A stretch of 64,000 nucleotides of DNA from positions 7,854-71,853 of the forward strand of contig JBEBKH010000003.1 in NCBI GenBank assembly GCA_040079575.1. The letters are read 5' to 3'. A program made the position numbers and the translations under genes. Within the stretch, counting starts at the first letter, position 1, and every line of letters begins with the position of its first letter. Shown piece by piece: positions 9,658-64,000 of the stretch. Origin of the DNA: Chakrabartia sp. (lineage in GTDB: Bacteria; Pseudomonadota; Alphaproteobacteria; Sphingomonadales; Sphingomonadaceae). Below the pieces are notes generated by a model. It was not told where the DNA came from. It saw only the letters and a program-made list of their open reading frames with translations, and did no database searches.

Positions 9658-10731
9658 TTACGCAGACATTTCCAGTACAATCTTTCCTACATGCCGTTTG
9701 GTCGAAAATGCTTCCTGCGCTGCGACAATTTCGGACAGCGGGAATATGAGCGCGACCAGAGGTGTGATGTCTCCGCTTTCAATATAGCGGATGAGGTTGG
9801 GAAACACCTCTGGCTCAAGGATTGTACATCCGATAAGTTGCAAATCTTTAAGGTACAATGTCCTTAAATCAAGATCGACAACCGGACCCGAAATTGCGCC
9901 CGCAACCCCGTATCGTCCGCCACGTTTGAGGCCGTTCAGGATTGCGCCAAACTGTGCGCCGCCAACGACATCAACGACGGCGTCAAAATATTCTTTGCCA
10001 AAAAGCGCAACTATGTCGGCGTCCCTGGGGATTACCTTGGCCGCACCCAAAGCACGTACAGCCTCTGCTTTGTCTGCTCCCGCCATTGCAACAATTTCTG
10101 CGCCGCGCCTCCTGGCGAGTTGGACGGCAGCAGAACCAACCCCGCCCGACGCGCCTGTGATCAACACACGTTCGCCCGCTGCCAATCCAATGCGGGTAAG
10201 CATATTTTCTGCAGCGGAATAAGCGCAGGGAAAGCTTGCCAATTCGACATCGCTTAGACTGCTCTCAATCCGGTGCGCATGAACAGAAGGCACGCGGGCA
10301 TAGTCGGAAAACGCGCCGTCCACTTCGGAACCAAAGTAAATCGCGTCAAATCGACCTCGCCCCCTGAAAACCGGTTCAATCAGAACACGTTCGCCAATCC
10401 GCTTTGGATCAATCTGTGTCCCCACAGCAACAATCCTCCCGCACGCGTCCGCCCCCTGAATGCGGGGGAACTGGAACATCTTCCCCGACCAGCCGTCATT
10501 TTCTGCTCCCGCAATACCAGTGGCAGCGCCCACCTCCGTCGCCTCGGCCACCGCTTTCGAATACCAGCCGATCCGCGTGTTAATGTCTGTATTATTGACC
10601 CCTGCTGCACCGACACGGATCAGAACATCATCGGGACCAAGAGCGGGAACAGGCACATCATCGCGCACCTCCAGCTTTTCATAGCCGCCATTGCCCGTCA
10701 GCAACACTGCGCGCATCAGGGAAGGCGTCAT
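9658..10731 (-). CDS. MDR superfamily alcohol dehydrogenase/quinone oxidoreductase-like protein
   Basis: AAGVNNTD, QGADACGRI, ITGASGGVG Rossmann motif, HVGKIVL; start overlaps the Rieske stop (TGATG). Confidence 0.88.
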   Translation of the reverse strand: MTPSLMRAVLLTGNGGYEKLEVRDDVPVPALGPDDVLIRVGAAGVNNTDINTRIGWYSKAVAEATEVGAATGIAGAENDGWSGKMFQFPRIQGADACGRIVAVGTQIDPKRIGERVLIEPVFRGRGRFDAIYFGSEVDGAFSDYARVPSVHAHRIESSLSDVELASFPCAYSAAENMLTRIGLAAGERVLITGASGGVGSAAVQLARRRGAEIVAMAGADKAEAVRALGAAKVIPRDADIVALFGKEYFDAVVDVVGGAQFGAILNGLKRGGRYGVAGAISGPVVDLDLRTLYLKDLQLIGCTILEPEVFPNLIRYIESGDITPLVALIFPLSEIVAAQEAFSTKRHVGKIVLEMSA

Positions 10732-11984
10732 CAATTGGCGCGCTCCAACCCAAACTGGTTCAGATACCATTTTTGGAAACTAATCACACTGCCCTCCTGA
10801 TCAGAATAGCGTCCCGGACGATAGCGGCTGGACATGATCCCAGCCTGATTATTCTCGGTGATCACTTTGTCCTGTGTGGTCGTAGCATGATAACCCCAGA
10901 TCATTTTTTCGATATCTACCTCTGCCTCGCTGGCGCGGCCATCGACCAGCCAGATCATCTCGACGTCGGTAGCGAGCGCTGAGCGTGGAGTGAATTGGAA
11001 AAGAATGACAAAATGATCATCTGCAACAATCTGGCTGAACGGGCTGAAGCTCAAATGCATCCGCCCGCCGTCGGCATGTGTGCGTTTGCCCATGAGCGGA
11101 GCTGGCGCGGTGCCGTCTTGCGTTTCGGCGGCCCAGCCATCTTTATTCATACGTTGCATCATCAGCCGCAAGTGGCTGCTTTCTGGGGCGTCATCGATAT
11201 TGCCAATCGGACGCCCGACCGCAGCCGCACTTTCTTCCCATGCCTGCAGCTTAGGGGTGAAACTGGCAATGGCATCTGCCGGGCCCGAATTTGGTCCCGC
11301 CCCCACCGCAACAATCGATTCCGCCGCATGCATTGAACAGAATTCGGGGTGCGAAGGGACACAGTGATAGCATTCGAAGAAATTTTCAACGACCAGCTTC
11401 CAATTGGCATCCGTGGGATAGCTGCCAGCATGCGCAATCCGGGCGTCTGCAATCCCGTGATAATCAAGGATCGCTCCCATCTCGCCAAAAGTAGCATCGA
11501 AATCGACGGGCTCACCTTCAGTCATATTAATGAAGATCAGCCCGTGGAACACGCGGACATGGCAAGAAAACAGACTGTTTTCAGCCTTGTCAAAATCCTC
11601 CGGCATCAACCGCGCGGCGATCAACTTGCCATCAAGACCAAACGTCCAAGCGTGATAGGGGCAGACCAATCGCGGCGCATTTCCGCTTTCAGCAGAACAT
11701 AGCGTCGACCCGCGATGACGACAGACATTGAAAAAGGCACGGACGCTATCGGCATTTTCACGGATGATAATGATCTGTTCCTGGCCAATTTTGAACAGGA
11801 AATAGTCGCCCTTCTCTGGCACCCGCGAAACATGCCCGGCAAGGATCCATTTTTTACTGATCACTTGATCCATATCGGCCTTGAACACCTCGGCGCTGGT
11901 GTAAAATTCTTGGTCAAAGCTATACCCAACGCGCGTATTTGCGGCGAGGCGGTTCATCATTTCACTTTGGGTTTCGGTCATCAA
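10731..11984 (-). CDS. Rieske non-heme iron oxygenase alpha subunit (GbcA/Stc2-like), copy 1
   Basis: CRHRG...CPYHAW Rieske ligands; ENFFECYHC...SHPE and QD mononuclear iron ligands. Confidence 0.93.
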   Translation of the reverse strand: MMTETQSEMMNRLAANTRVGYSFDQEFYTSAEVFKADMDQVISKKWILAGHVSRVPEKGDYFLFKIGQEQIIIIRENADSVRAFFNVCRHRGSTLCSAESGNAPRLVCPYHAWTFGLDGKLIAARLMPEDFDKAENSLFSCHVRVFHGLIFINMTEGEPVDFDATFGEMGAILDYHGIADARIAHAGSYPTDANWKLVVENFFECYHCVPSHPEFCSMHAAESIVAVGAGPNSGPADAIASFTPKLQAWEESAAAVGRPIGNIDDAPESSHLRLMMQRMNKDGWAAETQDGTAPAPLMGKRTHADGGRMHLSFSPFSQIVADDHFVILFQFTPRSALATDVEMIWLVDGRASEAEVDIEKMIWGYHATTTQDKVITENNQAGIMSSRYRPGRYSDQEGSVISFQKWYLNQFGLERAN

Positions 11985-14425
11985 ATTTTAATCCGTGCGT
12001 TGGTGGGGTCATACATGGGTTTGAGCGATGCGGTGACGGGATAGCGCACACCCGCAATTTCGATTTCATAGTCATCCGCGCCTATCGGTCCGACCACCTC
12101 GTCATTTGCTGCTGTGACATAGCCAAGCCCGCAAGCTGCGCCGAGAGTATGGGCATACATGCCAGAACGAATGTAACCGGCGATGCGATCTCCCTGCCAG
12201 ATCGGTTCATTATGATAGAGCATCGGGTCGGGCGATTTTAGCAGAAACTGAACAAGACGCTGTTTGAGGCCATCCTGCTTTTGCTTGAGCAATGCATCAC
12301 GCCCGATAAAGCCACCCGCCTTGTCCATCCGTACTGCAAAGCCAAGTCCAGCCTCTAAAGGCGTGTCTTCATCGGTGATGTCGTGACCCCAGTGACGATA
12401 TCCCTTTTCCATACGCAACGCATTGAGCGCGTGATAACCACAATGTTTGAGGTCAAATGCCGCACCCGCCGCGACGATTTCATCGTACACACCGGTCATG
12501 AATTCAGATGCGATATAAAGCTCCCAGCCCAATTCACCGACATAGGTAATGCGTGAAGCGCGGACGATGGCATAGCCAAGTTCGATGTCCTGAGACGTGC
12601 CGAACGGGAAGGCTTCGTGCGATAGATCATTGGGGCAAATCGACTGAAGCAAGGCGCGCGCATTCGGCCCCATGATTGAAATCACACCCATAGCAGAGCT
12701 GACATTGGTCAGCACCGCATGCGCATCATCAGGCGTATGACGTTTCAACCAGTTGAAATCTTTAATTTCGGTCTCTGCCCCTGTGACGATCAAAAAGGCT
12801 GTGTCGGACAGGCGGGTGACGGTCAAATCCGCTTCGATCCCACCTTTTTCATTGAGCCACTGTGTATAGATCAGCTTGCCCGGCGCAACATCGACATCGT
12901 TCGCGCAGACACGGTTGAGCACGCTGCAAGCATCGCGTCCTTCCAACCGAAATTTTGCGAAGGATGACTGATCGAACAGGCCTACCCCCTCGCGCACCGC
13001 TTTGCACTCAGCCGCATTGGCTTCAAACCAATTCTGACGACCATAACTATATTCATATTTTGGCGCACTACCCGGGGCACCGTACCAATTAGGCCGCTCC
13101 CATCCGAACGCCTCACCGTGACACGCGCCCGCTGCTGCCACGCGGTCATGGATCGCAGAACGGCGAACGCCGCGCGCGGTTTCATATTGTTTGAACGGAT
13201 AATGGGTCGCGTAAAGCAGGCCGAGGCTTTCGGTTACCCGCTCACGCAGATATTTGCGATTGATCTGAAAAGGCATGTTGCGGCGAATATCGACAGTCCA
13301 CAAATCGGCTGGCGGGATACCGTCACGGATCCAGTCAGCCATCACCTTGCCAACACCGCCCGCCGATTGCAGGCCGATTGAGTTCAAACCCGCTGCAACA
13401 AAACAGCCTCTGAGTTCCGCACTTTCACCCAGATGATAGCGCACGTCGGGGGTAAAGCTTTCGGGCCCGCAGAAGAATTTCTGAATGCCCGCTTTCTCAA
13501 GTGCGGGCACCCGGCGCATCGCATCCATCAGCAACGGTTCGAAATGTTCGAAACTCCCCGCAATTTCATCAAAGCAGAAATCTTCGGATATGCCGTCCAT
13601 CCCCCAGGGCCGCGCATTGGGTTCAAACGCGCCAACGAGCAACTTGCCCGCGTCATATTTATAATATCCGCAATAATCATAGTCGCGCAGCACAGGGAGC
13701 GTTGAATCGATTCCCTCAACACCTTCGAACAGAACATAATAATGTTCACAGGCGTGCAACGGAGCGGCGACGCCGATACTCGCAGCCAAATCGCGCGTCC
13801 ACATGCCGCCGCAAATCACGACATAGTCAGCATCGATTGATCCTGTGTCGGTATCAACGCCAGTCACGCGGTCGCCGTTGTGGCGGATTTTGGTAACCTT
13901 GGTATTTTCAAATATCCGTGCGCCGCCAGTGCGCGCGCCCTTCGCCAACGCCTGTGTAATATCGACCGCATTGGCATATCCATCGCTCGGAATATGGATG
14001 CCGCCCACCACATCATCAACATTGACGATATGTGCGAGCGCCTTGATTTCTTCGGGCGTGACAACATGGACGGGCAGATCGAACACTTTGGCCATTGAGG
14101 CGCTTCGTTTGAGTTCCTCAAACCGTTCCATATTGGTCGCCATCGAAATTGAACCGCACTGGCGATATCCCGTCGCTTGACCGGTCTCAGCCTCAAGCCC
14201 GCGATAAAGTTCGCCGGTATATTTGGCCAGCTTGGTCATGTTGATGCTTGGGCGCAATTGCCCGACCAGCCCCGCCGCATGCCACGTCGTGCCACTGGTC
14301 AACTGCTTGCGTTCCAGCAAGACAACATCGTCCCAGCCGATCTTTGTCAGATGATAGGCAATCGAACAGCCGATCACGCCGCCGCCGACAATGACGACCT
14401 TTGCCTTTTTGGGGAGTTCAGCCAC
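11981..14425 (-). CDS. GcvT-family FAD-dependent N-methyl amine dehydrogenase (sarcosine/DMG dehydrogenase-like)
   Basis: GGGVIG, TTWHAAG (covalent FAD His), GPESFTPD, GWERPNW; C-terminal THF-binding GcvT domain. Confidence 0.93.
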   Translation of the reverse strand: MAELPKKAKVVIVGGGVIGCSIAYHLTKIGWDDVVLLERKQLTSGTTWHAAGLVGQLRPSINMTKLAKYTGELYRGLEAETGQATGYRQCGSISMATNMERFEELKRSASMAKVFDLPVHVVTPEEIKALAHIVNVDDVVGGIHIPSDGYANAVDITQALAKGARTGGARIFENTKVTKIRHNGDRVTGVDTDTGSIDADYVVICGGMWTRDLAASIGVAAPLHACEHYYVLFEGVEGIDSTLPVLRDYDYCGYYKYDAGKLLVGAFEPNARPWGMDGISEDFCFDEIAGSFEHFEPLLMDAMRRVPALEKAGIQKFFCGPESFTPDVRYHLGESAELRGCFVAAGLNSIGLQSAGGVGKVMADWIRDGIPPADLWTVDIRRNMPFQINRKYLRERVTESLGLLYATHYPFKQYETARGVRRSAIHDRVAAAGACHGEAFGWERPNWYGAPGSAPKYEYSYGRQNWFEANAAECKAVREGVGLFDQSSFAKFRLEGRDACSVLNRVCANDVDVAPGKLIYTQWLNEKGGIEADLTVTRLSDTAFLIVTGAETEIKDFNWLKRHTPDDAHAVLTNVSSAMGVISIMGPNARALLQSICPNDLSHEAFPFGTSQDIELGYAIVRASRITYVGELGWELYIASEFMTGVYDEIVAAGAAFDLKHCGYHALNALRMEKGYRHWGHDITDEDTPLEAGLGFAVRMDKAGGFIGRDALLKQKQDGLKQRLVQFLLKSPDPMLYHNEPIWQGDRIAGYIRSGMYAHTLGAACGLGYVTAANDEVVGPIGADDYEIEIAGVRYPVTASLKPMYDPTNARIKI

Positions 14426-14428: not shown

Positions 14429-16846
14429 TCAAACCTTCATTTTCATATTGTCAGGATCATAAGCGGGATGCTCCAACACTGTGGCCACACACCGTTCACC
14501 TTGAAGATAGAGATCAAATGTTGATCCAGGGGCAGCATTTTCAATTGGTACACAGGCAAAGAACAAACTCTTCCCGACACGGTGGCCGTATCCGCCCGAT
14601 GTCGTCAAACCTATGCACGTGTCGCCGATCAGGCATGGCTCAGCACCGCGCACATCGACATTGGTCGCGCCCACTTCACCGTAAACAATCCGGAACCGGT
14701 CAGGCGCATCGAGCGTCGCTTGCTTGCCAACGAAATCGTCTTTCTTGAAATTGATAAAGCGTGGCATATCAGCCTCAATCATAGTCAATTCGTTGGTCAG
14801 TTCAGACCCCCACGCTTTATATCCCTTTTCCATCCGCATCGTATTGGCGGCATACAGGCCGTAATTGACGATGCCGAATTCCTGACCCGCTTCCCAAACA
14901 GCATCATACAATACCGCGAGATCTTCCATGGCTGGATGCAGTTCCCACCCCAACTCTCCAGCATAAGAAACACGAAGCGCCCGCATTTTGATGCCCGCGA
15001 TCACGATATCCTGACCACTCAACCAGCGAAAACCTTCATTGCCGAGGTCCGCATCGGTCAGCTTTGCCAGCACATCGCGCGAGTGCGGGCCGTTCATCAC
15101 CAGAACGCCCAAGTCCATCGTGAGGTTGCTGATGGTGACATCCTCGCCCGGCAATTTACTCTGTATCAACCAGTCCCAGTCGCGCTGTTCGGCAGCCGAG
15201 GCGGAGAGACAATAGAAATGGTCGTCGGCAAAACGCGTCACCGTCATCTCGCCGTAAATGCGTCCCTGCACCGACAAGGGATGGACAAGCCCAATTCCGC
15301 CAAGTTTCTTGGGCATGCGGTTTGCACAGATACGGTTGAGGAAGCCCTCTGCGTCCGGCCCCGTCACATCATATTTGGCAAAACCCGAAAGATCGAGCAC
15401 GCCGACGCGCTCTTCAACGGCCTTCACTTCCGCCGCAATCACCTCAAACGTGTTGGTGCGCTGATAGCCGCCTTCTTCCGGCGCGCCGTCAAGCGCGAAA
15501 TATTTGGGCCTTTCCCAACCATAAGTCTCACCAAAGACCGCACCGGCAGCCTTAAGTGGCGCATAAAGCGGGCTGGTTTTTTGCGGGCGGCCATCGGGTT
15601 CTTCTTCGCCGGGAAGCCGCGTGGTGAAGGTCATCCGGTAATCGAGGAACACCTTGTCGCGGCAATAATCTTCAGTGGCAAATGGTCCGTAACGGCGCGG
15701 ATCAAATTCGGTCATATTGATGTCTGCATCACCGAACACCATCCACTGCGCGAGATATTTGCCAGCGCCACCCCCCTGGGCGATGCCAAAGCTGGTGCCG
15801 CAACACTGCCAGAAATTCTTAAGGCCAACCGCAGGCCCCAGCAACGGCCCCCCATCGGGCGTGTGCGGAATCGCGCCATTGACGAAGCGCCGCAGGCCGA
15901 CTTCACCGAAAACCGGCATACGTTCGATTGCACGTTCAAGCCATGGCGCGATCCGTTCCAGATCCTCGGGGAACAGCTCGCTGGTTGAGTTCCATTCGGG
16001 ATGGCCACCGCGCGGAGCCCAGGCTTCGGCGAGGCCCGTGCTTTCGTAAACGCCGATCAGCCCGCTTTTCTGCTCCTGTCGAAAATAGCCGGAAACATGC
16101 GGGCAACGCATGACGGGGATTTCTTCCGATCGCTCCATAAAAGCCGGGATCGGGTCGGTCACAACATAATGATGCTCCATATTGGTCACCGGAATATCAA
16201 TGCCCGCCATCTGCGCCACCTGCCGCGCATAGCAGCCTGCCGCGTTCACAATGATTTCGGCGCGGACCGTGCCTTTTTCGGTCTCCACGTCCCATTCGCC
16301 TGATGGCAGCTGTGTGAGGCCGGTAACGCGGTTCTTACGCACAATCTTCGCGCCCATATTCTTGGCGCCAATGGCCAGTGCGTTGCAGATGCCCGACGGA
16401 TCAGCATGACCGTCTTCGGTCGTCCGCGCGCCTGCGATCACGCCTTCCAGCGTCATGAACGGATTATGGCGGAGGATTTCCGCGGGCGGAATGATCTCCA
16501 TCTCAAACCCGATGATCTTGGAAAAGCCCTGAATATAGCGCATCCACGCCAGCTCACGCTCATTGGTGGCAAGCCTTATACCGCCCGATTTGTGCCAGCT
16601 GACATATTGGCCCGTCAGGCCTTCCAGCTGCGGATAGAGCTCATTTGAATAAGCATGCATCTTGGCAAGATTGAAGCTGCCGGTGATATTGGGGCACTGG
16701 CCCGCCGCATGCCAGGTGGAGCCGGAGGTCAGTTCATCCTTTTCAATCAACAGGCAATCGGTCCAGCCGAGTTCGGCAAGGTGATAGAGCAAACTCGCCC
16801 CCATGATCCCGCCGCCGATAATCACAACCCGTGCCGATGTCTGCAT
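14429..16846 (-). CDS. GcvT-family dimethylglycine dehydrogenase-like protein
   Basis: GGGIMG, STWHAAG, NGAIPHTPDG, GWERPKYF, RMEKGYKAWG; AGGAG ribosome-binding site. Confidence 0.93.
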   Translation of the reverse strand: MQTSARVVIIGGGIMGASLLYHLAELGWTDCLLIEKDELTSGSTWHAAGQCPNITGSFNLAKMHAYSNELYPQLEGLTGQYVSWHKSGGIRLATNERELAWMRYIQGFSKIIGFEMEIIPPAEILRHNPFMTLEGVIAGARTTEDGHADPSGICNALAIGAKNMGAKIVRKNRVTGLTQLPSGEWDVETEKGTVRAEIIVNAAGCYARQVAQMAGIDIPVTNMEHHYVVTDPIPAFMERSEEIPVMRCPHVSGYFRQEQKSGLIGVYESTGLAEAWAPRGGHPEWNSTSELFPEDLERIAPWLERAIERMPVFGEVGLRRFVNGAIPHTPDGGPLLGPAVGLKNFWQCCGTSFGIAQGGGAGKYLAQWMVFGDADINMTEFDPRRYGPFATEDYCRDKVFLDYRMTFTTRLPGEEEPDGRPQKTSPLYAPLKAAGAVFGETYGWERPKYFALDGAPEEGGYQRTNTFEVIAAEVKAVEERVGVLDLSGFAKYDVTGPDAEGFLNRICANRMPKKLGGIGLVHPLSVQGRIYGEMTVTRFADDHFYCLSASAAEQRDWDWLIQSKLPGEDVTISNLTMDLGVLVMNGPHSRDVLAKLTDADLGNEGFRWLSGQDIVIAGIKMRALRVSYAGELGWELHPAMEDLAVLYDAVWEAGQEFGIVNYGLYAANTMRMEKGYKAWGSELTNELTMIEADMPRFINFKKDDFVGKQATLDAPDRFRIVYGEVGATNVDVRGAEPCLIGDTCIGLTTSGGYGHRVGKSLFFACVPIENAAPGSTFDLYLQGERCVATVLEHPAYDPDNMKMKV

Positions 16847-16940: not shown

Positions 16941-17053
16941 AATTTAAGGGTAAGGCAAAACAGGTTAGGGTCAGGACCGCGTCACGACAGCGTCACACAA
17001 GGCGTCTATTTTGGTATCTCTGATCAATAATGGTTGATATTGGGCGGATACAG

Positions 17054-17836
17054 ATGACGACACTTTCTCTTTCGATTCCCAAAGCAGAACCACAGGCGTA
17101 TCTGCTCTGCGCAATGCGTCTGCTGTGGATCGGTTTGCCGCTCATCATTATTTTGCCGCTTCACCTCCTCTGGCATGTGCTCAAATTGCCTTCGCCTTGG
17201 GCGATGATGTTCATGCGCATCACGTCCCGTGCATTGGGTGCGCGCGTAAAAGTGCACGGAAAACCGCTGCGTAAGGACGTCTTCTTTGTCGCCAACCATC
17301 TGTCATGGCATGATATTCCCATCCTCGGCGGGATCACGGGGACGGCGTTTGTCGCGCAGGACGGTGTCCGATCCTGGCCCATCATTGGCTGGCTTGCGAC
17401 CCTCAACCGCACCATTTTCATCAGCCGCAGCGACAAACAAAATGTCAGCGCCCAGGTTGCAGAGCTGCGTGACGCCATTTCAGAAAACTGGTCTGTCACC
17501 CTGTTCCCGGAAGGCACGACATCAGACGGACGGGGTTTGTTGCCCTTCAAACAATCATTGTTTGCAACGCTGGCCCCGCCGCCAAAACCGATGATGATCC
17601 AGCCGGTCTTGATTGATTTTGGAAAAGACGGGCCAGACATTGCGTGGCTGGGCGAAGAAACAGGTGGCGAGAGCGCGTGGCGCGCCTTCACCCGCAAAGG
17701 AAGTTACGCCGTCAACGTCCATTTTCTGGAACCATTTGACCCCGGCACCGTCGGCGACCGCAAACAAGTCTGCGCGCTCGCCCGCACACGTCTCAGCGCC
17801 GCACTGTCGCGCAGCCTTGGATATAGCGTTTCTTAA
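17054..17836 (+). CDS. Lysophospholipid acyltransferase (PlsC family)
   Basis: NHLSWHD (HX4D), FVAQ, FISR, LFPEGT motifs; N-terminal membrane segment. Confidence 0.9.
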   Translation: MTTLSLSIPKAEPQAYLLCAMRLLWIGLPLIIILPLHLLWHVLKLPSPWAMMFMRITSRALGARVKVHGKPLRKDVFFVANHLSWHDIPILGGITGTAFVAQDGVRSWPIIGWLATLNRTIFISRSDKQNVSAQVAELRDAISENWSVTLFPEGTTSDGRGLLPFKQSLFATLAPPPKPMMIQPVLIDFGKDGPDIAWLGEETGGESAWRAFTRKGSYAVNVHFLEPFDPGTVGDRKQVCALARTRLSAALSRSLGYSVS

Positions 17837-17863
17837 ACACGCTTTGGGCGATATTGGAACGAC

Positions 17864-56324: not shown

Positions 56325-56356
56325 ATCGCTTCCCCCCAATGGCCATTGTCGATAGT

Positions 56357-56863
56357 TCAATGGCTGGCAGCCACTGTGATCGCGTTCCAAAGCCAAGGTG
56401 CGAAACTGCGCCATACTTCAACATGAAAACAGTCATCACTTTCTCGGATCAGGATGATTTCAACTGTTTCATAAAGGGTGCGGCTGGCCCGCCCGGTCGC
56501 AAAAAAATCGAGATCGAGCGGACAGCCCGACATCAAAACCTCCGCCGCGCGCGGGCCCTCCACGTTGAAGCAGACGGCACGCTCGCTCACATCCGTAACC
56601 GCTATCGCCAAACCTTCTCCGGTGGGAATGACGTTATCCACCGGCCCTCGCTTAAGCCATTCATCGGGACCAAGGCAGGCAATGCCACCCATCGTCGCGC
56701 CAATCTTATCTGGCACTTTCGTTTTGAGCAGCGTTTCCAGCACCTGCGCTTCCCGTGCGCGCAAGGAATAGCGCGCCATTGCGGGAGCAAGACTGATCGT
56801 CACGCCGTTTGCCACAAAGGGCGCTGTCGGAACGGGTTCAGTGCGGATCAGCGGATCAGACAT
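56357..56863 (-). CDS. soxG: Sarcosine oxidase gamma subunit, copy 2
   Basis: LGPDEWL, DVSE, GCPLDL, EVWRSFAPWLW. Confidence 0.9.
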   Translation of the reverse strand: MSDPLIRTEPVPTAPFVANGVTISLAPAMARYSLRAREAQVLETLLKTKVPDKIGATMGGIACLGPDEWLKRGPVDNVIPTGEGLAIAVTDVSERAVCFNVEGPRAAEVLMSGCPLDLDFFATGRASRTLYETVEIILIRESDDCFHVEVWRSFAPWLWNAITVAASH

Positions 56864-59717
56864 TGAGGCGCGCTCCCGTGGGATCGTAAAATACCATGCC
56901 GCTAACCTTAGCGGCATGTGTTTTGCCGGGCATCGGAATATGTAACGTTTCGCCCATACGTCCCTGCCCGCCCGCGACTAGCGCCAGCGCAATCGACCGA
57001 CCGAGCGCCGCGCTCCAATAAGAGGAGGTAACGTGGCCGATCATTTTCATCGGTATAGATTGGTTCGGATCGCCGACAATTTGTGCGCCTCCTTCAAGCA
57101 CGATGTTTGGATCATCGGTCAGCAAGCCCACCAACTGCTTACGACCCGACGCTACAATATCTGGCCGCGCGAGTGACCGCCGCCCAACAAAATCGGGCTT
57201 CTTTTTGCCAACCGCCCAATCGAGTCCGGCATCATAGGGCGTTACCGTCCCGTCTGTATCCTGCCCGACAATGATAAAGCCTTTTTCCGCGCGCAGCACA
57301 TGCATCGCTTCGGTTCCGTACGGCGTGATGTTATAGGGCGCACCCTCAGCCATAATCCTTTCCCAGACTGCGCGACCAAAAGCTGCTGGGACGTTGATTT
57401 CGAAACCAAGTTCACCGGTAAAACTCACCCGGAACAGGCGCATGGGCACTCCGCAAATGGTGCCTTCTCGGATTGCCATATGCGGGAAAGCCACAGCAGA
57501 CAGATCAATGCCTGCGACCAGTGGCGCAAGAACATTGCGCGCATTGGGGCCTTGAAGCGCGATCACTCCGTACTGCTCAGTCGTGCTGGTCAGCCAAACG
57601 TTGAGGTCTGGCCATTCGGTCTGGAGATAATCCTCCATCATATTGAGCACCCGCGCTGCGCCGCCGGTCGTTGTGGTCAAATGAAAACGGTCAGGGGCCA
57701 GACGCGCAGAGACACCGTCATCGGTGATGAAGCCATCTTCCTTGAGCAGCAGACCGTAGCGGCAACGGCCAGGTTCGAGCGCCTTCCAGGGATTGGTGTA
57801 CATGCGGTTGAGGAATTCAGCAGCATCTGGGCCAACGACTTCAATCTTGCCAAGGGTTGATGCATCGAAAATACCCACGGAGGATCGCACTGCAACACAT
57901 TCGCGGTTCACTGCTGCGTGCATATCCTCGCCATCATGCGGAAAATAACGCGCGCGCCGCCACTGCGCGACAAGTTCAAACACGGCGCCGTTTTCTTCAG
58001 CCCAGCCATCAATCGGCGATTTGCGCAGCGGCTGAAACAATGCGCCCTTCGCATGCCCCGCGAGCGCCCCGAATGTCTGGGGCGTAAAGGGTGGGCGAAA
58101 GGTTGTCAGGCCAATATCAGTCACGGGCTTGGACAAGGCCGTTGACGCGATTTGCAGGCCATTAAGGTTGGACGTCTTGCCTTGATCGGTCGCCATGCCA
58201 TTGGTGGTGTAACGCTTGATATGTTCAATCGACCGAAAGCCCTCACGCACCGCAAGCTTGATGTCCTTCGCGGTCACATCATTTTGAAAATCAACAAAGG
58301 CTTTTATCTGGCTTTGGTCCTTGGGTGTTGGCAACATATCAATGACCGCGCCATTCCCGAAATTCCACGTCCCGGCACAAGCCCCGACACAGCGGACATT
58401 TTCATTGGGCTGATCGGGCACATAGGCCCCCAGATCATCGCGCCAGACGAGGCTGCCTTTGCTGTGCGACCAGAGGTGGACCGTTGGAGTCCAGCCGCCC
58501 GCCATGAGCAGCGCGTCACATATAATGGTCGTTTTCCCGCTGCCTTTGTTGGCCGCAACGTCAATGGATTTCACCCCGTGTCGTCCACTAACCCCGATGA
58601 CACTATGGCCCAGCTTGACCTTCAACCCAAGTTCCGCCGCTTGTTTGTGGAGGGCTTCATCAACCACATCGCGGACATCGATGATCGCAGCAATACCGAC
58701 GCCTGCCTTCAGCAACGCAAAGACATCATGCCAGCCGCTGTCATGCGACGCCATAAGCGCAACCGATGTGCCAACCGCGACGCCGTAGCGATTGGCATAG
58801 ATTTTGGCGGCGGAAGAAAGCATAACACCGGGCGTGTCATTGCCTTCAAATACCAGTGGCCGCTCAATAGCGCCTTGAGCGAGGATGACCTCTCCCGCCC
58901 TGATCCGCCACAGCCTTTCGCGCGGTCCATCGCCGCCATCTGCGCGGTGATCCGTAAGCCGCTGCACCGCGCCGATGAAGTTATCGTGATAATATCCAAA
59001 CGCTGTTGTGCGCGTTAAAATTTCGATGTTGGCTGCCGCTTTCAACGCCTTCGCACTGCGCGCGAGCCAAGGCCAAAGTGTGGGGTCAGCCAGCGCGCCA
59101 CCGCCCAGTTCATCTTGCTCATCGATCAGGATCACGCGCTTGTTCGTGGCGCTGGCTGCCAAGGCGGCATCAATTCCTGCCGGCCCTGCGCCAACAATCA
59201 ACAGATCGCAGTGCGCATAGGTTGATGCGTAAACGTCGGGATCTTCCTCGGTCGGCGTGTCCCCCAACCCCGCCATTTTGCGGATCGCGGGCTCATAAAG
59301 CTTATCCCAGAAGGAGCGCGGCCACATAAAGGTCTTGTTGTAAAAACCCGCTGGGAAAAACATACCGAGCCGGTCATTGATCGCACCAAAATCCGTCTTC
59401 AAAGAGGGCCAACGGTTCTGACTGCCCGCGTTCAAGCCTGCATAGACTTCAACGCTGGTCGCGCGGAGGTTGGGGGTAAAACGACCCGGACCGCGTGTCA
59501 CCGAAACAAGTGCGTTGGGTTCCTCACTTCCTGCGCCAAGCAGTCCGCGTGGCCGGTGATATTTGAATGAGCGCCCAAAAAGCATGACTCCGCTGGCGAG
59601 CAAGGCAGACGCCAATGTGTCGCCTGCATACCCCGTATAGCTTTGCCCATCAAAGCTGAAATGCACCGGTTCACTGCGATCAACACGGCCACCATTTGGC
59701 AAACGAAAACCACTCAT
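56856..59717 (-). CDS. soxA: Sarcosine oxidase alpha subunit, copy 2
   Basis: RLPNGGRVDR, RSFKYHRPRG, DFQNDV, KRYTTNGMATDQGK, DASTLGKI, RAEKG. Confidence 0.95.
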   Translation of the reverse strand: MSGFRLPNGGRVDRSEPVHFSFDGQSYTGYAGDTLASALLASGVMLFGRSFKYHRPRGLLGAGSEEPNALVSVTRGPGRFTPNLRATSVEVYAGLNAGSQNRWPSLKTDFGAINDRLGMFFPAGFYNKTFMWPRSFWDKLYEPAIRKMAGLGDTPTEEDPDVYASTYAHCDLLIVGAGPAGIDAALAASATNKRVILIDEQDELGGGALADPTLWPWLARSAKALKAAANIEILTRTTAFGYYHDNFIGAVQRLTDHRADGGDGPRERLWRIRAGEVILAQGAIERPLVFEGNDTPGVMLSSAAKIYANRYGVAVGTSVALMASHDSGWHDVFALLKAGVGIAAIIDVRDVVDEALHKQAAELGLKVKLGHSVIGVSGRHGVKSIDVAANKGSGKTTIICDALLMAGGWTPTVHLWSHSKGSLVWRDDLGAYVPDQPNENVRCVGACAGTWNFGNGAVIDMLPTPKDQSQIKAFVDFQNDVTAKDIKLAVREGFRSIEHIKRYTTNGMATDQGKTSNLNGLQIASTALSKPVTDIGLTTFRPPFTPQTFGALAGHAKGALFQPLRKSPIDGWAEENGAVFELVAQWRRARYFPHDGEDMHAAVNRECVAVRSSVGIFDASTLGKIEVVGPDAAEFLNRMYTNPWKALEPGRCRYGLLLKEDGFITDDGVSARLAPDRFHLTTTTGGAARVLNMMEDYLQTEWPDLNVWLTSTTEQYGVIALQGPNARNVLAPLVAGIDLSAVAFPHMAIREGTICGVPMRLFRVSFTGELGFEINVPAAFGRAVWERIMAEGAPYNITPYGTEAMHVLRAEKGFIIVGQDTDGTVTPYDAGLDWAVGKKKPDFVGRRSLARPDIVASGRKQLVGLLTDDPNIVLEGGAQIVGDPNQSIPMKMIGHVTSSYWSAALGRSIALALVAGGQGRMGETLHIPMPGKTHAAKVSGMVFYDPTGARLNV

Positions 59718-59986
59718 CGGCGGGGCTCCCCGGCTTTATAGGTGGTTTCGAATTTATCAGTTGCCGTGTCACGCACCGCGTTGAAGAACCGCCCACAGCC
59801 GTGGGTATGGCGCCACCGTTCATGATGCCGCCCGCGCGGATTGGCACGAATGAACAGATAGGCTTCCCATTCCTCATCGCTTTGTGTGGAAGGGTCGGCG
59901 GGACGCGCGATATGCGCTTGTCCGGCATAAGAAAATTCAATCTCCGCGCGCATTTCTTCGCAATAGGGACAGGGAATCAACATCAT
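59714..59986 (-). CDS. soxD: Sarcosine oxidase delta subunit, copy 2
   Basis: LIPCPYC...EFSYAGQAH...NPRG...WRHTHGC. Confidence 0.93.
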   Translation of the reverse strand: MMLIPCPYCEEMRAEIEFSYAGQAHIARPADPSTQSDEEWEAYLFIRANPRGRHHERWRHTHGCGRFFNAVRDTATDKFETTYKAGEPRR

Positions 59987-59987
59987 A

Positions 59988-61241
59988 TCAGTGTGCCACT
60001 GCCGCTGCTGCGGCCTCATCGATCAGTCGTCCACCGCGAAAGCGGTCAAGGTTATAGGGCGCATTGATCGGATGCGGCTCATCTTTCGCCATCGTATAGG
60101 CAAGCAAGTCCCCAGCGCCCGGTGTCGCCTTAAACCCACCAGTCCCCCAACCGCAATTGACATAGAGACCCTGCACAGGTGTTTTGCCAAGGATCGGCGA
60201 CCGATCCGGCGTCACATCGACGATACCCCCCCAGCTGCGCAGCATCCGCATCCGACGGTAAATTGGGAAAATTTCACAAATCGCTGCCAGAGTATGTTCA
60301 ATGATGTGGAGCGCGCCGCGCTGCGCATAGCTTACATATTGGTCGGTCCCCGCACCAATCACCAGCTCCCCCTTATCCGATTGGCTCATATAAGCATGGA
60401 CTGTGTTCGACATGACCACACAGGGAAATGTTGGCTTGATCGGTTCAGAAACGAGCGCCTGTAAGGGATAGCTCTCAAGCGGAAAATCAAGACCTGCCAT
60501 CTGCATGATCACCGACGTATTGCCCGCCGCTGAAACACCGACACGTTTGGAAGCAATGTAGCCGCGCGTGGTGTCCACACCTGCAATCGCACCGTCCGGC
60601 CCGCGCCGGATACCGGTCACCCCGCAGTTCTGGATGATATCAACACCCAAAGCGGCCGCCGCGCGCGCGTAACCCCACGCCACAGTATCATGCCGCGCGG
60701 TCCCGCCGCGCCGCTGTAACGCCGCACCGAGCACCGGATGGCGCGCATCAGGCGAAATGCTCAACGGCGGGCAATAGGCTTTTGCTTCTTGCGGAGTCAG
60801 CCATTCATTGTCGACGCCGTTCAGCCGGTTGGCGTTGATATGGCGTTGCAAGCTTTGCACATCATGAACATTATGTGCGAGCATCATCACCCCGCGCTTT
60901 GAATACATGGTGTTATAATTCAGCTCTTGGCTCAACCCGTCCCAAAGTTTGAGTGCATGATCGTAAAGATGTGCGCTTTCATCATAAAGATAGTTGGAAC
61001 GGATGATCGTGGTGTTGCGGCCCGTGTTGCCGCCGCCAATCCAGCCCTTTTCAAGCACGGCAACATTGGTGATCCCGTATTTTTTGGCGAGATAATAAGC
61101 AGCGCCAAGACCGTGTCCGCCGCCGCCAACGATAATCGCGTCATAAGCTGGTTTTGGCGCAGCATCGGGCCATTGTTCTGGCCAGCTTTGGTGGCCGCCC
61201 AATGCTTTGGCGAAGAGGTTATATCCGCTGAAACGCGTCAT
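59988..61241 (-). CDS. soxB: Sarcosine oxidase beta subunit, copy 2
   Basis: GGGGHG, GNTGRNTTIIRSNY, ARHDTVAW, QALVSEP, WGTGGFKATP. Confidence 0.95.
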   Translation of the reverse strand: MTRFSGYNLFAKALGGHQSWPEQWPDAAPKPAYDAIIVGGGGHGLGAAYYLAKKYGITNVAVLEKGWIGGGNTGRNTTIIRSNYLYDESAHLYDHALKLWDGLSQELNYNTMYSKRGVMMLAHNVHDVQSLQRHINANRLNGVDNEWLTPQEAKAYCPPLSISPDARHPVLGAALQRRGGTARHDTVAWGYARAAAALGVDIIQNCGVTGIRRGPDGAIAGVDTTRGYIASKRVGVSAAGNTSVIMQMAGLDFPLESYPLQALVSEPIKPTFPCVVMSNTVHAYMSQSDKGELVIGAGTDQYVSYAQRGALHIIEHTLAAICEIFPIYRRMRMLRSWGGIVDVTPDRSPILGKTPVQGLYVNCGWGTGGFKATPGAGDLLAYTMAKDEPHPINAPYNLDRFRGGRLIDEAAAAAVAH

Positions 61242-62440
61242 GCCAGTGCTGCTTTCGACGCTGCAACATAAAAATCCTTAAAGTCCTCAACGAACTTTTC
61301 TTCCAATGCATAGGGGCCTTGTCGATATCCGTCGCTGCTGATGCCCTGATGGTTGATCGTCGAAAAATGGCCGTCCTGCGTGTTGGTTGCGCGCCACAAT
61401 GCTGCGATATGATCGGGATCATAATCAACCCCCTCGACCGCATCGGCGTGCACCAACCAGCTTGTCCGCAGCAACGTTTTGTCAGCCGCAATCGGGGTGA
61501 GTGAAAAAGTCACGACATGATCACAGCAGAAATGGTGCCAGCTGTTGGGCTGCGTCCAGATTGACAGGCTGGATGTTTCGGGTTCCTTGAATGGCCCGAT
61601 CAGTTTCTGGCAGGCCAGTTTGCCATCAATTGATTGCGTGACGGCTCCATTTGCTAAAGCGAGGCGCGCAATGCGGTGCCACCAGCCCTCCGGAAATTCG
61701 ATCAGATCGCGGTCAATGCCCAGTGCGCGCCATTCTGCGCGTTTGGCGGCCGCGTGGTCATCTTTAGGCGCGTCTTTGCCAAAACCAGTGGTGCCCAGAA
61801 CGCGGATCAATTCAGGATGACCAACGTCACAGTGATAGCATTCGCGATTATTTTCCATCACGATCTTCCAATTGGCGTCTTCGATATAATTATCCTGCAC
61901 GACAACCTTGAGACGGTCGAGGTCATAGACCGCAATCTGGTCGGAAATATCCGCCTTCACTTGAGTGATCGGCGGTGGAGTATCGCTCATACAGATGAAA
62001 ATCAGCCCAGCGACATTTTCAAGCGCAACGGGCGACAGTCCGTGATCCGCTTTATCAAAATCCTCTGCCATGCTGCGTGCGGCGAGCAATTTTCCGTCCA
62101 GACCGTAGGTCCATTGATGATAGGGGCACATCAATCGCGGCGCGTGGCCGCTTTGTTCATGACAGATTTTCGCGCCCCGGTGGCGACAACTGTTCCAGAA
62201 AGCCCTGATTTCATTGTCACGCCCCCGCACAATGATGATCGAATTGCTCGCCAGTTCGAACAGGAAATAGTCACCAGGGTTTTTAACATGCGCAACCGTA
62301 CAGGCATAGAGCCAGACGGATTTTAGCATCACCTGCGTATCAAACTGAAACGCCTCTTCGCTCACATACAGCTCACGTGGCAGTGTATGTCCCTTTCGGT
62401 CCATATCCAGCCACGTCGAAATAGGGTCATCGTGCGGCAC
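61238..62440 (-). CDS. Rieske non-heme iron oxygenase alpha subunit (GbcA/Stc2-like), copy 3
   Basis: CRHRG...CPYHQW; ENNRECYHC...GHPE; QD ligand. Confidence 0.93.
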   Translation of the reverse strand: MPHDDPISTWLDMDRKGHTLPRELYVSEEAFQFDTQVMLKSVWLYACTVAHVKNPGDYFLFELASNSIIIVRGRDNEIRAFWNSCRHRGAKICHEQSGHAPRLMCPYHQWTYGLDGKLLAARSMAEDFDKADHGLSPVALENVAGLIFICMSDTPPPITQVKADISDQIAVYDLDRLKVVVQDNYIEDANWKIVMENNRECYHCDVGHPELIRVLGTTGFGKDAPKDDHAAAKRAEWRALGIDRDLIEFPEGWWHRIARLALANGAVTQSIDGKLACQKLIGPFKEPETSSLSIWTQPNSWHHFCCDHVVTFSLTPIAADKTLLRTSWLVHADAVEGVDYDPDHIAALWRATNTQDGHFSTINHQGISSDGYRQGPYALEEKFVEDFKDFYVAASKAALA

Positions 62441-62444
62441 TGTC

Positions 62445-64000
62445 TTACCCTCTCAACGCATTGTTTTCCGGATCGAAGGGCGAATCTTCTATGATCGTCG
62501 CCTTGTAACGCACGCCCAATATCGCGATTTCAAATGCGGCCCCGACGATCGCTACATCGGGTCGGATCATGGCCAGTGCGAGACTTTTTTTGACGCGCCA
62601 GCCGTAACCGCCCGACGTTGTTCGTCCGACAAGCTGATCACCCTGATAGATTGCCTCTGATCCGCGCGCATCAGCATCGCTAACCCCGTGCACTTCCAAG
62701 GTCACAAGCGTGTTGGAAAGCCCCTTTTCTTTCCATGAGAGCAAGGCATCACGCCCAAAAAAGGCCTGCTTCTTGAGGCTGATGAACCGGTCGAGGCCGC
62801 TTTCAAATGCGCTATATTCAATCGACAATTCACGTGGGATCAGTTTGTAACTTTTTTCGAGCGCCATCGACGTCATTGCGCGAATGCCGAACGGTTTAAT
62901 GTCAAACTCTGCGCCCGCCTCGAACAGTACGTCGAAGATATAATTCTGCATCTCAATTGGATGATGGATTTCCCAACCTAGCTCACCAATGAAATTGACC
63001 CGCAGCGCATCGACTTGTGCAAGGCCGATGCTCATTTTCTTGCCCGTCAGCCAAGGGAAGGACGCGCTCGATAGATCAGTGTCAGTCAGTTTCGCCAGCA
63101 CATCACGCGAACGTGGCCCTGCGAGCACAAGCACGCCCATTGATGTTGTCAGCCGTTCAAAACTGACGGATCCATCTGTTGGCATCGCTTTCTTGAGATA
63201 GTCATGATCGTGCCGTTCATAAGCGCCAGCCGATACCAGATAGTAACGTTGCGACGCCATTTTATAGACTGTGAATTCGCTGCGCACGCCGCCTTTGCTG
63301 GTCAACAGATAAGAAAGCGACACGCGGCCAACTTTTTTGGGGACGGCGTTGGTGAGCAATTGGTCAAGCCAAGCTTCGGCCCCTAGTCCCGAAATTTCGC
63401 ATTTGGCAAAGGCGCTCATATCCTGAAGGCCAACTTTCTCGCTCACATGGCGGCATTCATTGCCGACATGTTCAAAATAGTTGGAGCGGCGGAACGACCA
63501 TTTTTCCTGGATCAGTGCGTCATCGGCCGTCACGGGATGATTGTGATTGAGCAGGACATCGGGCTTATCGAGGTCCGCTTCGGTGAGGTGATAGCCCTCA
63601 GGCGCAAACCAATTGGGGCGTTCCCAGCCAAACACGCTGCCAAATACCGCGCCCTTTGCCTTCATCCGATCATAGCAAGGCGTGCGGCGCAGCGCGCGCG
63701 CGGCTTCACGTTCCTCATCTGGATAATGCACGGTGAAAACCTTGGCATAGGCTTCCTCATTCTTCGCGATCAAGAATCCTCGACCGGCATAGTCACCAAA
63801 GCGGCGCGGATCGACACCCATCATATCGATGGTGGGTTCACCGTCGACGATCCAATGGGCAAGCTGCCAACCCGCGCCCCCGGCCGCGGTGACCCCAAAA
63901 CTATGGCCTTCATTGAGCCAGAAGTTTTTGAGACCCCACGCTGGTCCGACGATTGGCGACCCGTCGGGCGTGTAAGCGATAGCGCCGTTATAGACTTTCT
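62445..64000 (-). CDS. GcvT-family dimethylglycine dehydrogenase-like protein, 5'-truncated by the window edge
   Basis: Frame stays open to 64000: YNGAIAYTPDG...NEGHSFGVTAAGGAG...GWERPNWF...LEKSY. Confidence 0.92.
   Translation of the reverse strand, partial: KVYNGAIAYTPDGSPIVGPAWGLKNFWLNEGHSFGVTAAGGAGWQLAHWIVDGEPTIDMMGVDPRRFGDYAGRGFLIAKNEEAYAKVFTVHYPDEEREAARALRRTPCYDRMKAKGAVFGSVFGWERPNWFAPEGYHLTEADLDKPDVLLNHNHPVTADDALIQEKWSFRRSNYFEHVGNECRHVSEKVGLQDMSAFAKCEISGLGAEAWLDQLLTNAVPKKVGRVSLSYLLTSKGGVRSEFTVYKMASQRYYLVSAGAYERHDHDYLKKAMPTDGSVSFERLTTSMGVLVLAGPRSRDVLAKLTDTDLSSASFPWLTGKKMSIGLAQVDALRVNFIGELGWEIHHPIEMQNYIFDVLFEAGAEFDIKPFGIRAMTSMALEKSYKLIPRELSIEYSAFESGLDRFISLKKQAFFGRDALLSWKEKGLSNTLVTLEVHGVSDADARGSEAIYQGDQLVGRTTSGGYGWRVKKSLALAMIRPDVAIVGAAFEIAILGVRYKATIIEDSPFDPENNALRG

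Follow-up and report, generated by a model that had tools for sequence, protein, structure and literature searches.

A probable region for betaine N-demethylation and C1 oxidation with three Rieske operons in freshwater Sphingorhabdus

Introduction

Betaines and related methylated amines serve as major currencies of carbon, nitrogen and energy in the exchange between phototrophs and heterotrophs, and to our knowledge almost all that is known about the pathways comes from Pseudomonas, rhizobia, Paracoccus, marine roseobacters or SAR11. Here we describe a region of about 55 kb in a metagenome-assembled genome (MAG) deposited as Chakrabartia sp. (NCBI GenBank assembly GCA_040079575.1, contig JBEBKH010000003.1), for which related loci are found in the genus Sphingorhabdus. 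The region occupies the 9.7-64 kb stretch of the window, by which we mean the whole piece of DNA that was analysed (64,000 nucleotides, contig positions 7,854 to 71,853). It holds three intact operons, here called modules A, B and C, each with one predicted group-V Rieske N-demethylase and two flavoprotein amine-oxidising systems, and in the same stretch lie purU and a frmA-fdsGBA-fdhD operon.

The glycine-betaine region of Pseudomonas aeruginosa, studied by Wargo and colleagues, reportedly comprises gbcAB, dgcAB, soxBDAG, glyA1, sdaB, purU2 and fdhA. As in the present region, a Rieske betaine monooxygenase, a heterotetrameric sarcosine oxidase, purU and a formaldehyde dehydrogenase are said to be co-located there, with serial demethylation followed by C1 disposal. 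The Pseudomonas system is, however, reported to be a single line for one substrate, with a dedicated GbcB reductase, with DgcAB instead of an enzyme of the dimethylglycine dehydrogenase (DMGDH) type, and with a glutathione-independent formaldehyde dehydrogenase. It is also said to lack the formate dehydrogenase (FDH) operon, the pyridoxal phosphate (PLP) enzyme and the OoxAB-like pair of the present region, which has three lines and no reductase.

In Paracoccus denitrificans, the formaldehyde formed by Rieske enzymes of the GbcAB family is handled by a glutathione-dependent formaldehyde dehydrogenase and FDH, and the GbcAB-family paralogues overlap in specificity (bioRxiv 10.1101/2023.12.12.567942). 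Paracoccus is the physiological precedent for formaldehyde release by Rieske enzymes and for oxidation of the C1 unit to CO2. It is likewise an alphaproteobacterium with three GbcAB-family paralogues (GbcAB, HpbC1B1 and HpbC2B2), and its formaldehyde also passes through a glutathione-dependent enzyme to CO2. However, each paralogue has its own reductase gene and separate locus tags (Pden_4896-97, Pden_1188-89 and Pden_2831-32), and the known substrates are glycine betaine and proline betaine, whereas the three lines of the present region sit together, have no reductase genes and have different enzymes downstream. A further parallel is the 37-kb compatible-solute island of Colwellia psychrerythraea 34H, in which a sarcosine oxidase operon stands beside genes for serial demethylation of glycine betaine, and which has been read as a niche adaptation (PMC3691474). 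That island has abnormal GC content, is duplicated, stems from inter-order transfer and serves one substrate family, whereas the present region has native GC content, three lines, no tRNA gene, and no transposase or integrase among its about 50 annotated ORFs.

Among enzymes of known structure, the stachydrine demethylase Stc2 (3VCA) and the carnitine monooxygenase CntA (6Y8J), both group-V Rieske oxygenases, are the best matches of the Rieske proteins and share with them the Rieske motif, the two-histidine iron site with a bridging glutamate, and a Cys-x-x-Cys pair (PMC10952381). The phmmer scores against Stc2 are only 229-360 bits and none of the three proteins looks orthologous to it, while CntA differs in that it cleaves a C-N bond and releases trimethylamine, with no demethylation.

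Clustering of betaine demethylases with purU and with formaldehyde and formate oxidation is already known from Pseudomonas, Paracoccus and the Colwellia island. The present region differs by its three deeply diverged lines in one co-inherited but shuffled stretch, by the lack of dedicated reductases, and by two operon layouts (A and B) without a described counterpart or an assigned substrate. An abundant freshwater and drinking-water genus, Sphingorhabdus, would thus carry a compact, co-inherited toolkit with three distinct demethylation lines. The region occurs in cultured species and a stripped-down core of module B is found on a Novosphingobium plasmid, which makes the substrates directly testable.

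Results and Discussion

Gene content of the region

Open reading frames (ORFs) of at least 100 amino acids were listed, and about 50 candidate genes were scanned against Pfam and NCBIfam. Every item in the gene inventory of a preliminary description of the stretch was recovered: three Rieske alpha subunits, three FAD-GcvT dehydrogenases of the DMGDH type, three LysR regulators (20262-21185, 40244-41143 and 53626-54618), and, as transporters, a BCCT protein (54729-56414), a major facilitator superfamily (MFS) protein (25485-26801) and a TonB-dependent receptor (28929-31580). All ORFs are full length relative to their profiles and no pseudogene was seen. The layout of one oxygenase and two flavoprotein systems drawn from different families also holds, with two DMGDH-type enzymes in module A, an OoxAB-like pair and SoxBDAG in module B, and one DMGDH-type enzyme and SoxBDAG in module C. 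The three modules do lie in the interval 10731-64000 first proposed, albeit its left edge has to be moved to 9658, where a further gene overlaps the first Rieske gene, and its right end to about 1 kb past the window. Junctions within the operons are overlaps of 1-11 nt or abutting stop and start codons.

With the window proteins as tblastn queries against the whole MAG (2.54 Mb, 202 contigs, 2.9% contamination), the only copies of the betaine-type Rieske protein, the FAD-GcvT dehydrogenase, the Sox sets, the BCCT transporter and the FDH alpha subunit were those of this region, apart from fragments on two short contigs, C176 and C186. The class-III alcohol dehydrogenase (ADH) and purU also have their sole close copies here, the next best elsewhere being 32% and 30% identical, respectively. 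About ten transcription units are packed into 2.2% of the genome and, since the genome's only copies of these enzyme types sit here, the clustering is far beyond chance.

We regard the stretch as probably a catabolic region on the chromosome, specific to the freshwater Sphingorhabdus lineage, which holds the whole capacity of the genome for oxidative betaine N-demethylation and C1 oxidation. The three operons would be independently regulated, and in each a group-V Rieske enzyme would hydroxylate an N-methyl group of a trimethylammonium compound, with release of free formaldehyde. The DMGDH-type and SoxBDAG enzymes, with their GcvT-type folate-binding domain, would strip further methyl groups onto tetrahydrofolate (THF), and the OoxAB-like pair would oxidise a secondary amine without folate. 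Formaldehyde and glutathione would be the substrates of FrmA, and the resulting thioester would be hydrolysed to formate by FghA. Methylene-THF would be converted to formyl-THF, a step for which FolD is assumed, and PurU would free formate from the latter. Formate from both branches would be oxidised to CO2 by FdsGBA with gain of NADH. The Rieske enzymes would draw their electrons from one or more unlinked [2Fe-2S] ferredoxins and a single ferredoxin reductase.

A foreign island was considered and rejected: GC content is even along the window, there is no tRNA gene in it and no integrase or transposase among the about 50 annotated ORFs, and housekeeping genes lie on both flanks, namely ribosomal-protein genes at one end and map and glnA at the opposite end.

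Conservation and arrangement among relatives

Thirty species of the genus were searched with the window DNA in three pieces, and the counts that follow are among the matches listed. Related loci were found in Sphingorhabdus (S. rigui, S. contaminans and S. profundilacus) and in many MAGs from lakes, glacier streams and rivers, some of them labelled Novosphingobium. Module A was present in 22 species and modules B and C in 24 each, at 70-81% nucleotide identity. All three occurred together in 21 of the 30 species and none in five (G006, G007, G012, G041 and G045). The remaining four were partial: G010 and G014 have no demethylase genes of module A, G019 has no module C and G015 has module C only, the latter two being incomplete assemblies. 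With no pseudogene and this nearly all-or-none distribution, the modules are intact and co-conserved, as had been predicted.

On long-enough contigs the modules lie at most about 100 kb apart, with the exception of G004, where module C is on a different contig. Their order varies. The order A-middle block-purU-ADH-FDH-B is found in this genome, G004 and G021, with module C following B here and on another contig in G004 and G021. G001 has the order B-C-A-middle block-purU-ADH-FDH; G002 and G046 have B-C-A-middle block-purU, with FDH elsewhere; and on one contig of G044 module B and the middle block occupy opposite ends, again with FDH elsewhere. The closed chromosome of GE-11 has ADH-FDH-FdhD-LysR-module B, as here. 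The modules are thus co-inherited and kept near each other, yet they are independent, shuffled units. An arrangement of the modules around one C1 sink, as first described, applies to this genome, G004, G021 and GE-11, but not to G002, G046, G009 and G044, in which the FDH operon lies elsewhere and the order is shuffled.

The shared junctions also bear on the idea that the region is a chimeric contig, produced by assembly or binning of a contaminated MAG. The 202 contigs, the contamination estimate of 2.9% and the presence of 87-93% identical duplicates on C176 and C186 could raise this suspicion. However, A-middle block-purU-ADH-FDH-B recurs in G004 and G021, FDH-LysR-B in the closed GE-11 chromosome, and B-hydrolase-LysR-BCCT-C in G001, G002, G046 and other assemblies. 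Moreover, a near-identical contig (97% protein identity) is present in another MAG and GC content is even across the window. An artefact is therefore effectively refuted by the same junctions in independent assemblies, and we regard it as extremely improbable.

The matches outside the region are on short contigs, with 87-93% protein identity to region genes: C176 matches dehydrogenase 1 of module A at 93% and C186 the module C Rieske protein at 87%. Contig C185 has 70% DNA identity to the stretch with the TonB-dependent receptor and purU. We take these three contigs to be fragments of a second Sphingorhabdus strain in the bin.

Between modules C and A in G002 (G002:C8:125001-135000) there are genes for a thiamine-diphosphate E1-like enzyme, an AsnC regulator, an amino-acid permease, a class-III aminotransferase, a homocysteine S-methyltransferase (BHMT-like) and a fatty-acid hydroxylase. 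At the place of this stretch the present window has a DsbA-like protein, a DUF1330 protein and a TetR regulator, with no permease, aminotransferase, methyltransferase or hydroxylase. The genes in G002 hint that some species may process betaine by another route, in which methyl groups are conserved.

Rieske proteins and their electron supply

All three Rieske proteins have the Rieske motif (C-x-H-x(15-20)-C-x-x-H) in the form CRHRG...CPYH, and each has the motif E-C-Y-H-C-x3-H, at residues 204-212 (A), 213-221 (B) and 200-208 (C). The latter combines the bridging glutamate, the two iron-ligand histidines and the cysteine pair that are typical of group-V Rieske enzymes acting on quaternary ammonium compounds (PMC10952381). 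The nearest structures of all three are Stc2, the uncharacterised 3N0Q and CntA. The three proteins are members of this group, but by their profile scores they are not demonstrable glycine-betaine monooxygenases.

No cognate FNR-Fer2 reductase is encoded in the window, nor is there a reductase gene between modules C and A in G002. A Fer2-domain search of the MAG and four complete congeners found no fused FNR-Fer2 reductase of the GbcB, CntB or VanB type, and recovered small ferredoxins, oxidoreductase small subunits, NuoG and FdsA only. The MAG encodes two small [2Fe-2S] ferredoxins (on C34 and C41) and one ferredoxin-NAD(P) reductase (on C14), all unlinked to the region, and we infer that the ferredoxin(s) and the single reductase serve all three Rieske enzymes. 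Oxygenase systems of sphingomonads typically share electron-transfer components that are unlinked to them. Such donors for three N-demethylating Rieske enzymes would differ from the textbook two-component GbcAB and CntAB systems.

C1 oxidation genes

The C1 oxidation genes of the region are on the plus strand:

31833-32690, plus strand, purU, formyl-THF deformylase (TIGR00655, 327 bits against a cut-off of 286)
32899-40296, plus strand, operon frmA-fdsG-fdsB-mobA-like-fdsA-fdhD
32899-34008, plus strand, class-III ADH (FrmA), glutathione-dependent formaldehyde dehydrogenase (TIGR02818, 607.7 bits against 543.95)
34009-39297, plus strand, FdsG, FdsB, MobA-like protein and FdsA of an NAD-linked molybdenum FDH (FDH alpha, TIGR01591, 908.8 bits against 666)
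39427-40296, plus strand, FdhD (TIGR00129, 169.8 bits against a cut-off of 141)

The frmA stop codon ends at 34008 and fdsG starts at 34009. The gamma subunit has "FDH gamma" as its best match (169.8 bits, under the cut-off of 198), and the beta subunit has the domains Complex1_51K and NADH_4Fe-4S. FdsGBA and FdhD are predicted to make up an NAD-dependent molybdenum FDH. FghA, the S-formylglutathione hydrolase, is encoded on the unlinked contig C56 (426 bits against a cut-off of 282). The gene between fdsB and fdsA (35786-36394, plus strand) encodes a MobA-like molybdenum-cofactor guanylyltransferase (78.8 bits, which is under its equivalog cut-off); the FDH operon of GE-11 has a gap of a size that matches this gene.

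Module C

Module C and the genes at its downstream end are on the minus strand:

52322-54618, minus strand, secreted alpha/beta hydrolase (signal peptide, GYSQG nucleophile elbow) with a LysR gene upstream of it (4-nt overlap), at the downstream end of module C
54729-56414, minus strand, BCCT transporter, the sole copy in the genome (Pfam BCCT 507 bits; glycine-betaine BCCT equivalog 444 bits against 650)
56357-61241, minus strand, soxBDAG (SoxA 1411 bits against 1164, SoxB 698 against 529 and SoxD 130.5 against 116.5, all above cut-off)
61238-62440, minus strand, Rieske alpha subunit, group-V type (GbcA model 399.5 bits against 670; Stc2 323 bits)
62445-64000, minus strand, FAD/THF amine dehydrogenase, DMGDH type, first gene of its operon, running past the window end

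SoxG of module C scores 83 bits, under its cut-off of 144, and the set as a whole looks like a canonical member of the heterotetrameric sarcosine oxidase family. The subunit order B-D-A-G of that family (TIGR01372-01375) is found in both Sox sets of the region. The dehydrogenase is complete on the contig (C3:70298-72892, longest open frame 864 amino acids). Its in-window part gives GcvT-domain and soxA-type matches, and at full length it is 35-40% identical to the other two dehydrogenases over about 830 amino acids, with 40% identity to dehydrogenase 2 of module A.

The content of module C, with BCCT transporter, Rieske protein, DMGDH-type enzyme and SoxBDAG, matches the alphaproteobacterial glycine-betaine route. 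Because it has the gene set of that route and the only BCCT transporter, module C is the best candidate for glycine betaine, and most likely takes it to dimethylglycine, sarcosine and glycine. Modules A and B would act on other N-methylated compounds.

The hydrolase (52322-53629) matches proteins of the PETase and platelet-activating-factor acetylhydrolase type. It was considered as a lipase dedicated to module B and rejected for this role, since it goes with the third LysR gene and module C in G004, where C is parted from B. In that genome (G004:C15:523082-533429) the BCCT gene between the hydrolase/LysR pair and soxG appears to have been deleted.

Module B

Module B starts next to the FDH operon and is preceded by a divergent regulator gene; two small ORFs that follow it are listed as well:

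40244-41143, minus strand, GcvA-like LysR, divergent from module B, its position kept in GE-11, N. aquiterrae and N. capsulatum
41293-42543, plus strand, Rieske alpha subunit, group-V type (GbcA model 436 bits against 670; 3N0Q and Stc2 both about 360 bits)
42533-43792, plus strand, PLP enzyme with the cystathionine-gamma-synthase/gamma-lyase fold (PRK07049, 514.9 bits against a cut-off of 504)
43792-46388, plus strand, OoxA-like protein (Pyr_redox_2, BFD-type 2Fe-2S and SO_alpha_A3 domains in Pfam) and OoxB-like protein (DAO)
46370-51170, plus strand, soxBDAG-like set (SoxB 658 bits against 529, above cut-off)
51450-52313, plus strand, two small membrane-protein ORFs, a 133-amino-acid protein and one of the anthrone-oxygenase family (PF08592)

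The PLP gene, for which the gene caller gives 419 amino acids, overlaps the Rieske stop by 11 nt at its start. The nearest structures of its product are the uncharacterised 5IJG and 7SWH, followed by methionine gamma-lyases at 275 bits. The PLP-lysine motif is present. Methionine gamma-lyases have an active-site Tyr-Gly-Cys (Cys116 in P. putida numbering), in place of which this enzyme has Y-G-G, and an assignment as methionine gamma-lyase was rejected on this ground and on the score of 340 bits against the TIGR01328 cut-off of 550. From its profile match, the enzyme can be placed in the uncharacterised PRK07049 clade. A homologue search returned mostly Sphingorhabdus proteins of about 89% identity with generic names only. 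PLP homologues from Rhizobium plasmids and from further families of the Sphingomonadales, about 50% identical, were also used to trace module B; they lie in unrelated contexts and were uninformative on function.

The OoxAB-like pair has its nearest structures in Pyrococcus PDH1 (1Y56, alpha and beta subunits) and in the corresponding subunits of heterotetrameric sarcosine oxidase. PDH1 is an alpha/beta L-proline dehydrogenase, and on the Sox side the similarity is to SoxB and the N-terminal half of SoxA. The pair can be described as an alpha/beta amine dehydrogenase without a THF-binding domain. In the Sox set, SoxA (1007 bits against 1164), SoxD (70.7 against 116.5) and SoxG (44 against 144) all stay under their cut-offs, which suggests a divergent relative of the heterotetrameric sarcosine oxidase family.

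The full eight-gene operon of module B is also present in Novosphingobium aquiterrae, and a core of LysR, Rieske, PLP and OoxAB-like genes without sox genes is found on a 611 kb plasmid of Novosphingobium capsulatum HAMBI_0103 (NZ_CP140001.1, 7-13.5 kb). The order and coupling of the genes are the same, and the Rieske protein, the PLP enzyme and OoxA are 59%, 71% and 54% identical, respectively, to those of module B. The position of OoxB is taken by a same-sized FAD-binding oxidoreductase, and the PLP enzyme is annotated as "cystathionine gamma-synthase family protein". The plasmid locus differs in that soxBDAG is absent and that genes for a CocE/NonD-family hydrolase, another LysR and a TonB-dependent receptor come after the core; there is no annotation of function. 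Because this core lacks sox genes, the evolutionary unit would be the Rieske-PLP-OoxAB quartet, with SoxBDAG as an add-on. A strict scheme in which three methyl groups are removed by three enzymes, one for each, is weakened by two observations: the N. capsulatum core has no SoxBDAG, and Stc2 has been crystallised with a doubly demethylated end product in its active site (PMC10952381). The reduced module in a cultured strain (record 3.7-13.5 kb) is a handy object for finding the substrate.

Judged from the gene set, the product of module B should be a primary amino acid open to attack by an enzyme of the gamma-lyase fold, probably a gamma-substituted 2-aminobutyrate, which is then cleaved by the PLP enzyme. 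A more specific proposal, which we put forward as doubtful, is that the core is a pathway for an N-methylated gamma-substituted 2-aminobutyrate, with homoserine betaine or the deacylated headgroup of the algal betaine lipid DGTS (glyceryl-trimethylhomoserine) as the best candidate. The N-methyl groups would be removed first, yielding the free alpha-amine that PLP chemistry needs, and a gamma-lyase would then eliminate the gamma-substituent (hydroxyl or glyceryl ether) to give 2-oxobutyrate and ammonia. Homoserine betaine fits as one candidate among several. No description of a catabolic route for it was found in the literature searched, and should module B break down this compound or the DGTS headgroup, a gap in betaine lipid turnover would be filled.

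Enzymes of the OoxAB type are known from opine cleavage, and this opens another view, in which module B, and possibly A, is no betaine pathway. The core would degrade a secondary or tertiary amine (for example an opine-like compound or one with an aminocarboxypropyl group), SoxBDAG would be a separate N-methyl-amino-acid oxidase, and the modules would have in common a recombination-prone catabolic zone and not their chemistry. The lack of a THF domain in the pair and its similarity to PDH1 and to the sarcosine oxidase alpha and beta subunits are in line with this, as are the plasmid-borne core that lies near a CocE/NonD hydrolase and a TonB receptor and has no Sox set, the shuffled module order, and the unrelated contexts of the 50%-identical PLP homologues. 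On the other hand, the Rieske protein of module B shows every element of the group-V signature, the cysteine pair among them, and the characterised enzymes nearest to it all attack quaternary N-methyl groups. Throughout Sphingorhabdus and in N. aquiterrae the core and SoxBDAG are translationally coupled, and in the genus the distribution of the three modules is nearly all-or-none. We therefore consider a non-betaine role unlikely, and keep to N-demethylation of a quaternary compound for module B.

Module A and the question of redundancy

Module A consists of four minus-strand genes, parted by a 3-nt gap or short overlaps:

9658-10770, minus strand, oxidoreductase of the medium-chain dehydrogenase/reductase (MDR) superfamily, quinone-oxidoreductase/enoyl-reductase type, last gene of the module (Pfam ADH_zinc_N and ADH_N)
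10731-11984, minus strand, Rieske alpha subunit, group-V type (Pfam Rieske and Ring_hydroxyl_A)
11981-14425, minus strand, FAD/THF amine dehydrogenase 1, DMGDH type (Pfam DAO, FAO_M, GCV_T and GCV_T_C)
14429-16846, minus strand, FAD/THF amine dehydrogenase 2, DMGDH type (the same four Pfam domains; DMGDH structure 605 bits)

The Rieske protein is the most divergent of the three. The nearest structures of dehydrogenase 1 are rat and human dimethylglycine dehydrogenase (511 bits, full length), and the two dehydrogenases are 32% identical to each other. Module A would process another betaine, in three steps. The MDR gene, which overlaps the Rieske stop codon, has as its best NCBIfam match the PIG3 quinone oxidoreductase subfamily (141 bits, under cut-off). 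A classical zinc-dependent ADH was rejected for it in favour of the quinone-oxidoreductase/enoyl-reductase type. This gene has been retained in G010 and G014, from which the other module A genes are missing. Homologues on plasmids gave no information on module A; they were at most 41% identical (Mesorhizobium and Yoonia) and in different contexts, one with a reductase of the PDR/VanB type.

The paralogues appear old and deeply diverged, with identities of 34-42% for the Rieske proteins, 32-40% for the DMGDH-type enzymes, 51% for SoxB and 40% for SoxA, which would fit different substrates. Alternatively, the three lines could be overlapping isoenzymes under different regulators, acting on the same few substrates (glycine betaine, dimethylglycine, sarcosine and proline betaine) in a high-capacity glycine-betaine pathway. 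All three Rieske proteins match the same models and structures, there is a single betaine-type transporter (BCCT), and in Paracoccus both GbcAB and HpbC2B2 oxidise glycine betaine, the latter also proline betaine (bioRxiv 10.1101/2023.12.12.567942). By analogy with these overlapping paralogues, the "generalist" capacity that had been suggested for the region, with algal or plant osmolytes and lipid headgroups as putative methyl sources, could partly mean redundancy. The low identities of the Rieske and DMGDH-type proteins speak against isoenzymes, however, and so does the tightly coupled gene of the PLP gamma-lyase family in module B, which has no role in glycine-betaine breakdown. The module B core also stands alone in N. 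capsulatum with a different accessory hydrolase, and three separate LysR regulators suggest three inducers. Finally, orthologues of the module A Rieske protein occur in 5 of 201 Sphingomonadales genomes, far more rarely than a housekeeping betaine route would. We hold full redundancy to be improbable, and prefer three lines for different N-methylated compounds.

Several observations weigh against the proposed function of the region as a whole. None of the Rieske proteins reaches the cut-off of 670 of the GbcA equivalog NF058607 (284, 436 and 399.5 bits for A, B and C), and therefore even the substrate of module C is uncertain. FghA and the electron donors are encoded outside the region and FolD is assumed, module B is without a transporter of its own, and there is no riboswitch or other regulatory RNA in the window. 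Several congeners have their C1 genes away from the modules, so that physical coupling to the sink is not required. The stretch of about 14.5 kb at 17-31.6 kb, which had been counted as part of N-methyl catabolism, has no demonstrable connection to it (17030-31580). Furthermore, the genome is a 202-contig MAG with second-strain fragments, and the matching sequencing runs are all DNA metagenomes (drinking water and sediments), the best match being a drinking-water metagenome.

The middle block and a dispersed repeat

The genes between module A and purU are the following:

17030-20230, plus strand, OlsA-like acyltransferase, short-chain dehydrogenase/reductase and dehydrogenase similar to 3-hydroxyisobutyrate dehydrogenase (Pfam and NCBIfam; no sign of a demethylation role)
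20262-31580, minus strand, the middle block, with GcvA-like LysR, GMC oxidoreductase, enolase-superfamily dehydratase, aldehyde dehydrogenase, MFS transporter, sulfotransferase with tetratricopeptide (TPR) repeats and TonB-dependent receptor

For the enolase-superfamily enzyme the closest structures are 4E5T and 4E4U, both uncharacterised, and among the genes of 17030-31580 all NCBIfam scores for the betA and betaine aldehyde dehydrogenase (BADH) equivalogs are under cut-off. In relatives and in the sister genus the genes of 17030-20230 keep their synteny with both module A and the middle block, and these two are themselves syntenic in the sister genus. The middle block is retained in G010 and G014, both of which lack the Rieske and GcvT genes of module A. 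At its head the TPR-repeat sulfotransferase is paired with the TonB-dependent receptor (26807-31580, minus strand), which is unusual for a catabolic operon, and a paralogue of the sulfotransferase (46% identical) is present on contig C15.

The window also contains two copies of a dispersed intergenic repeat of about 180 nt, at 4290-4500 (plus strand) and 17850-18090 (minus strand), which are 78% identical overall with long exact blocks. At least 12 copies are spread across the MAG, with further ones on contigs C10, C4, C105, C34, C8, C40, C28, C70, C97, C18 and C89. Rfam gave no match, and candidates for the repeat are an element resembling a miniature inverted-repeat transposable element (MITE) or a repetitive extragenic palindrome (REP), or a small RNA family.

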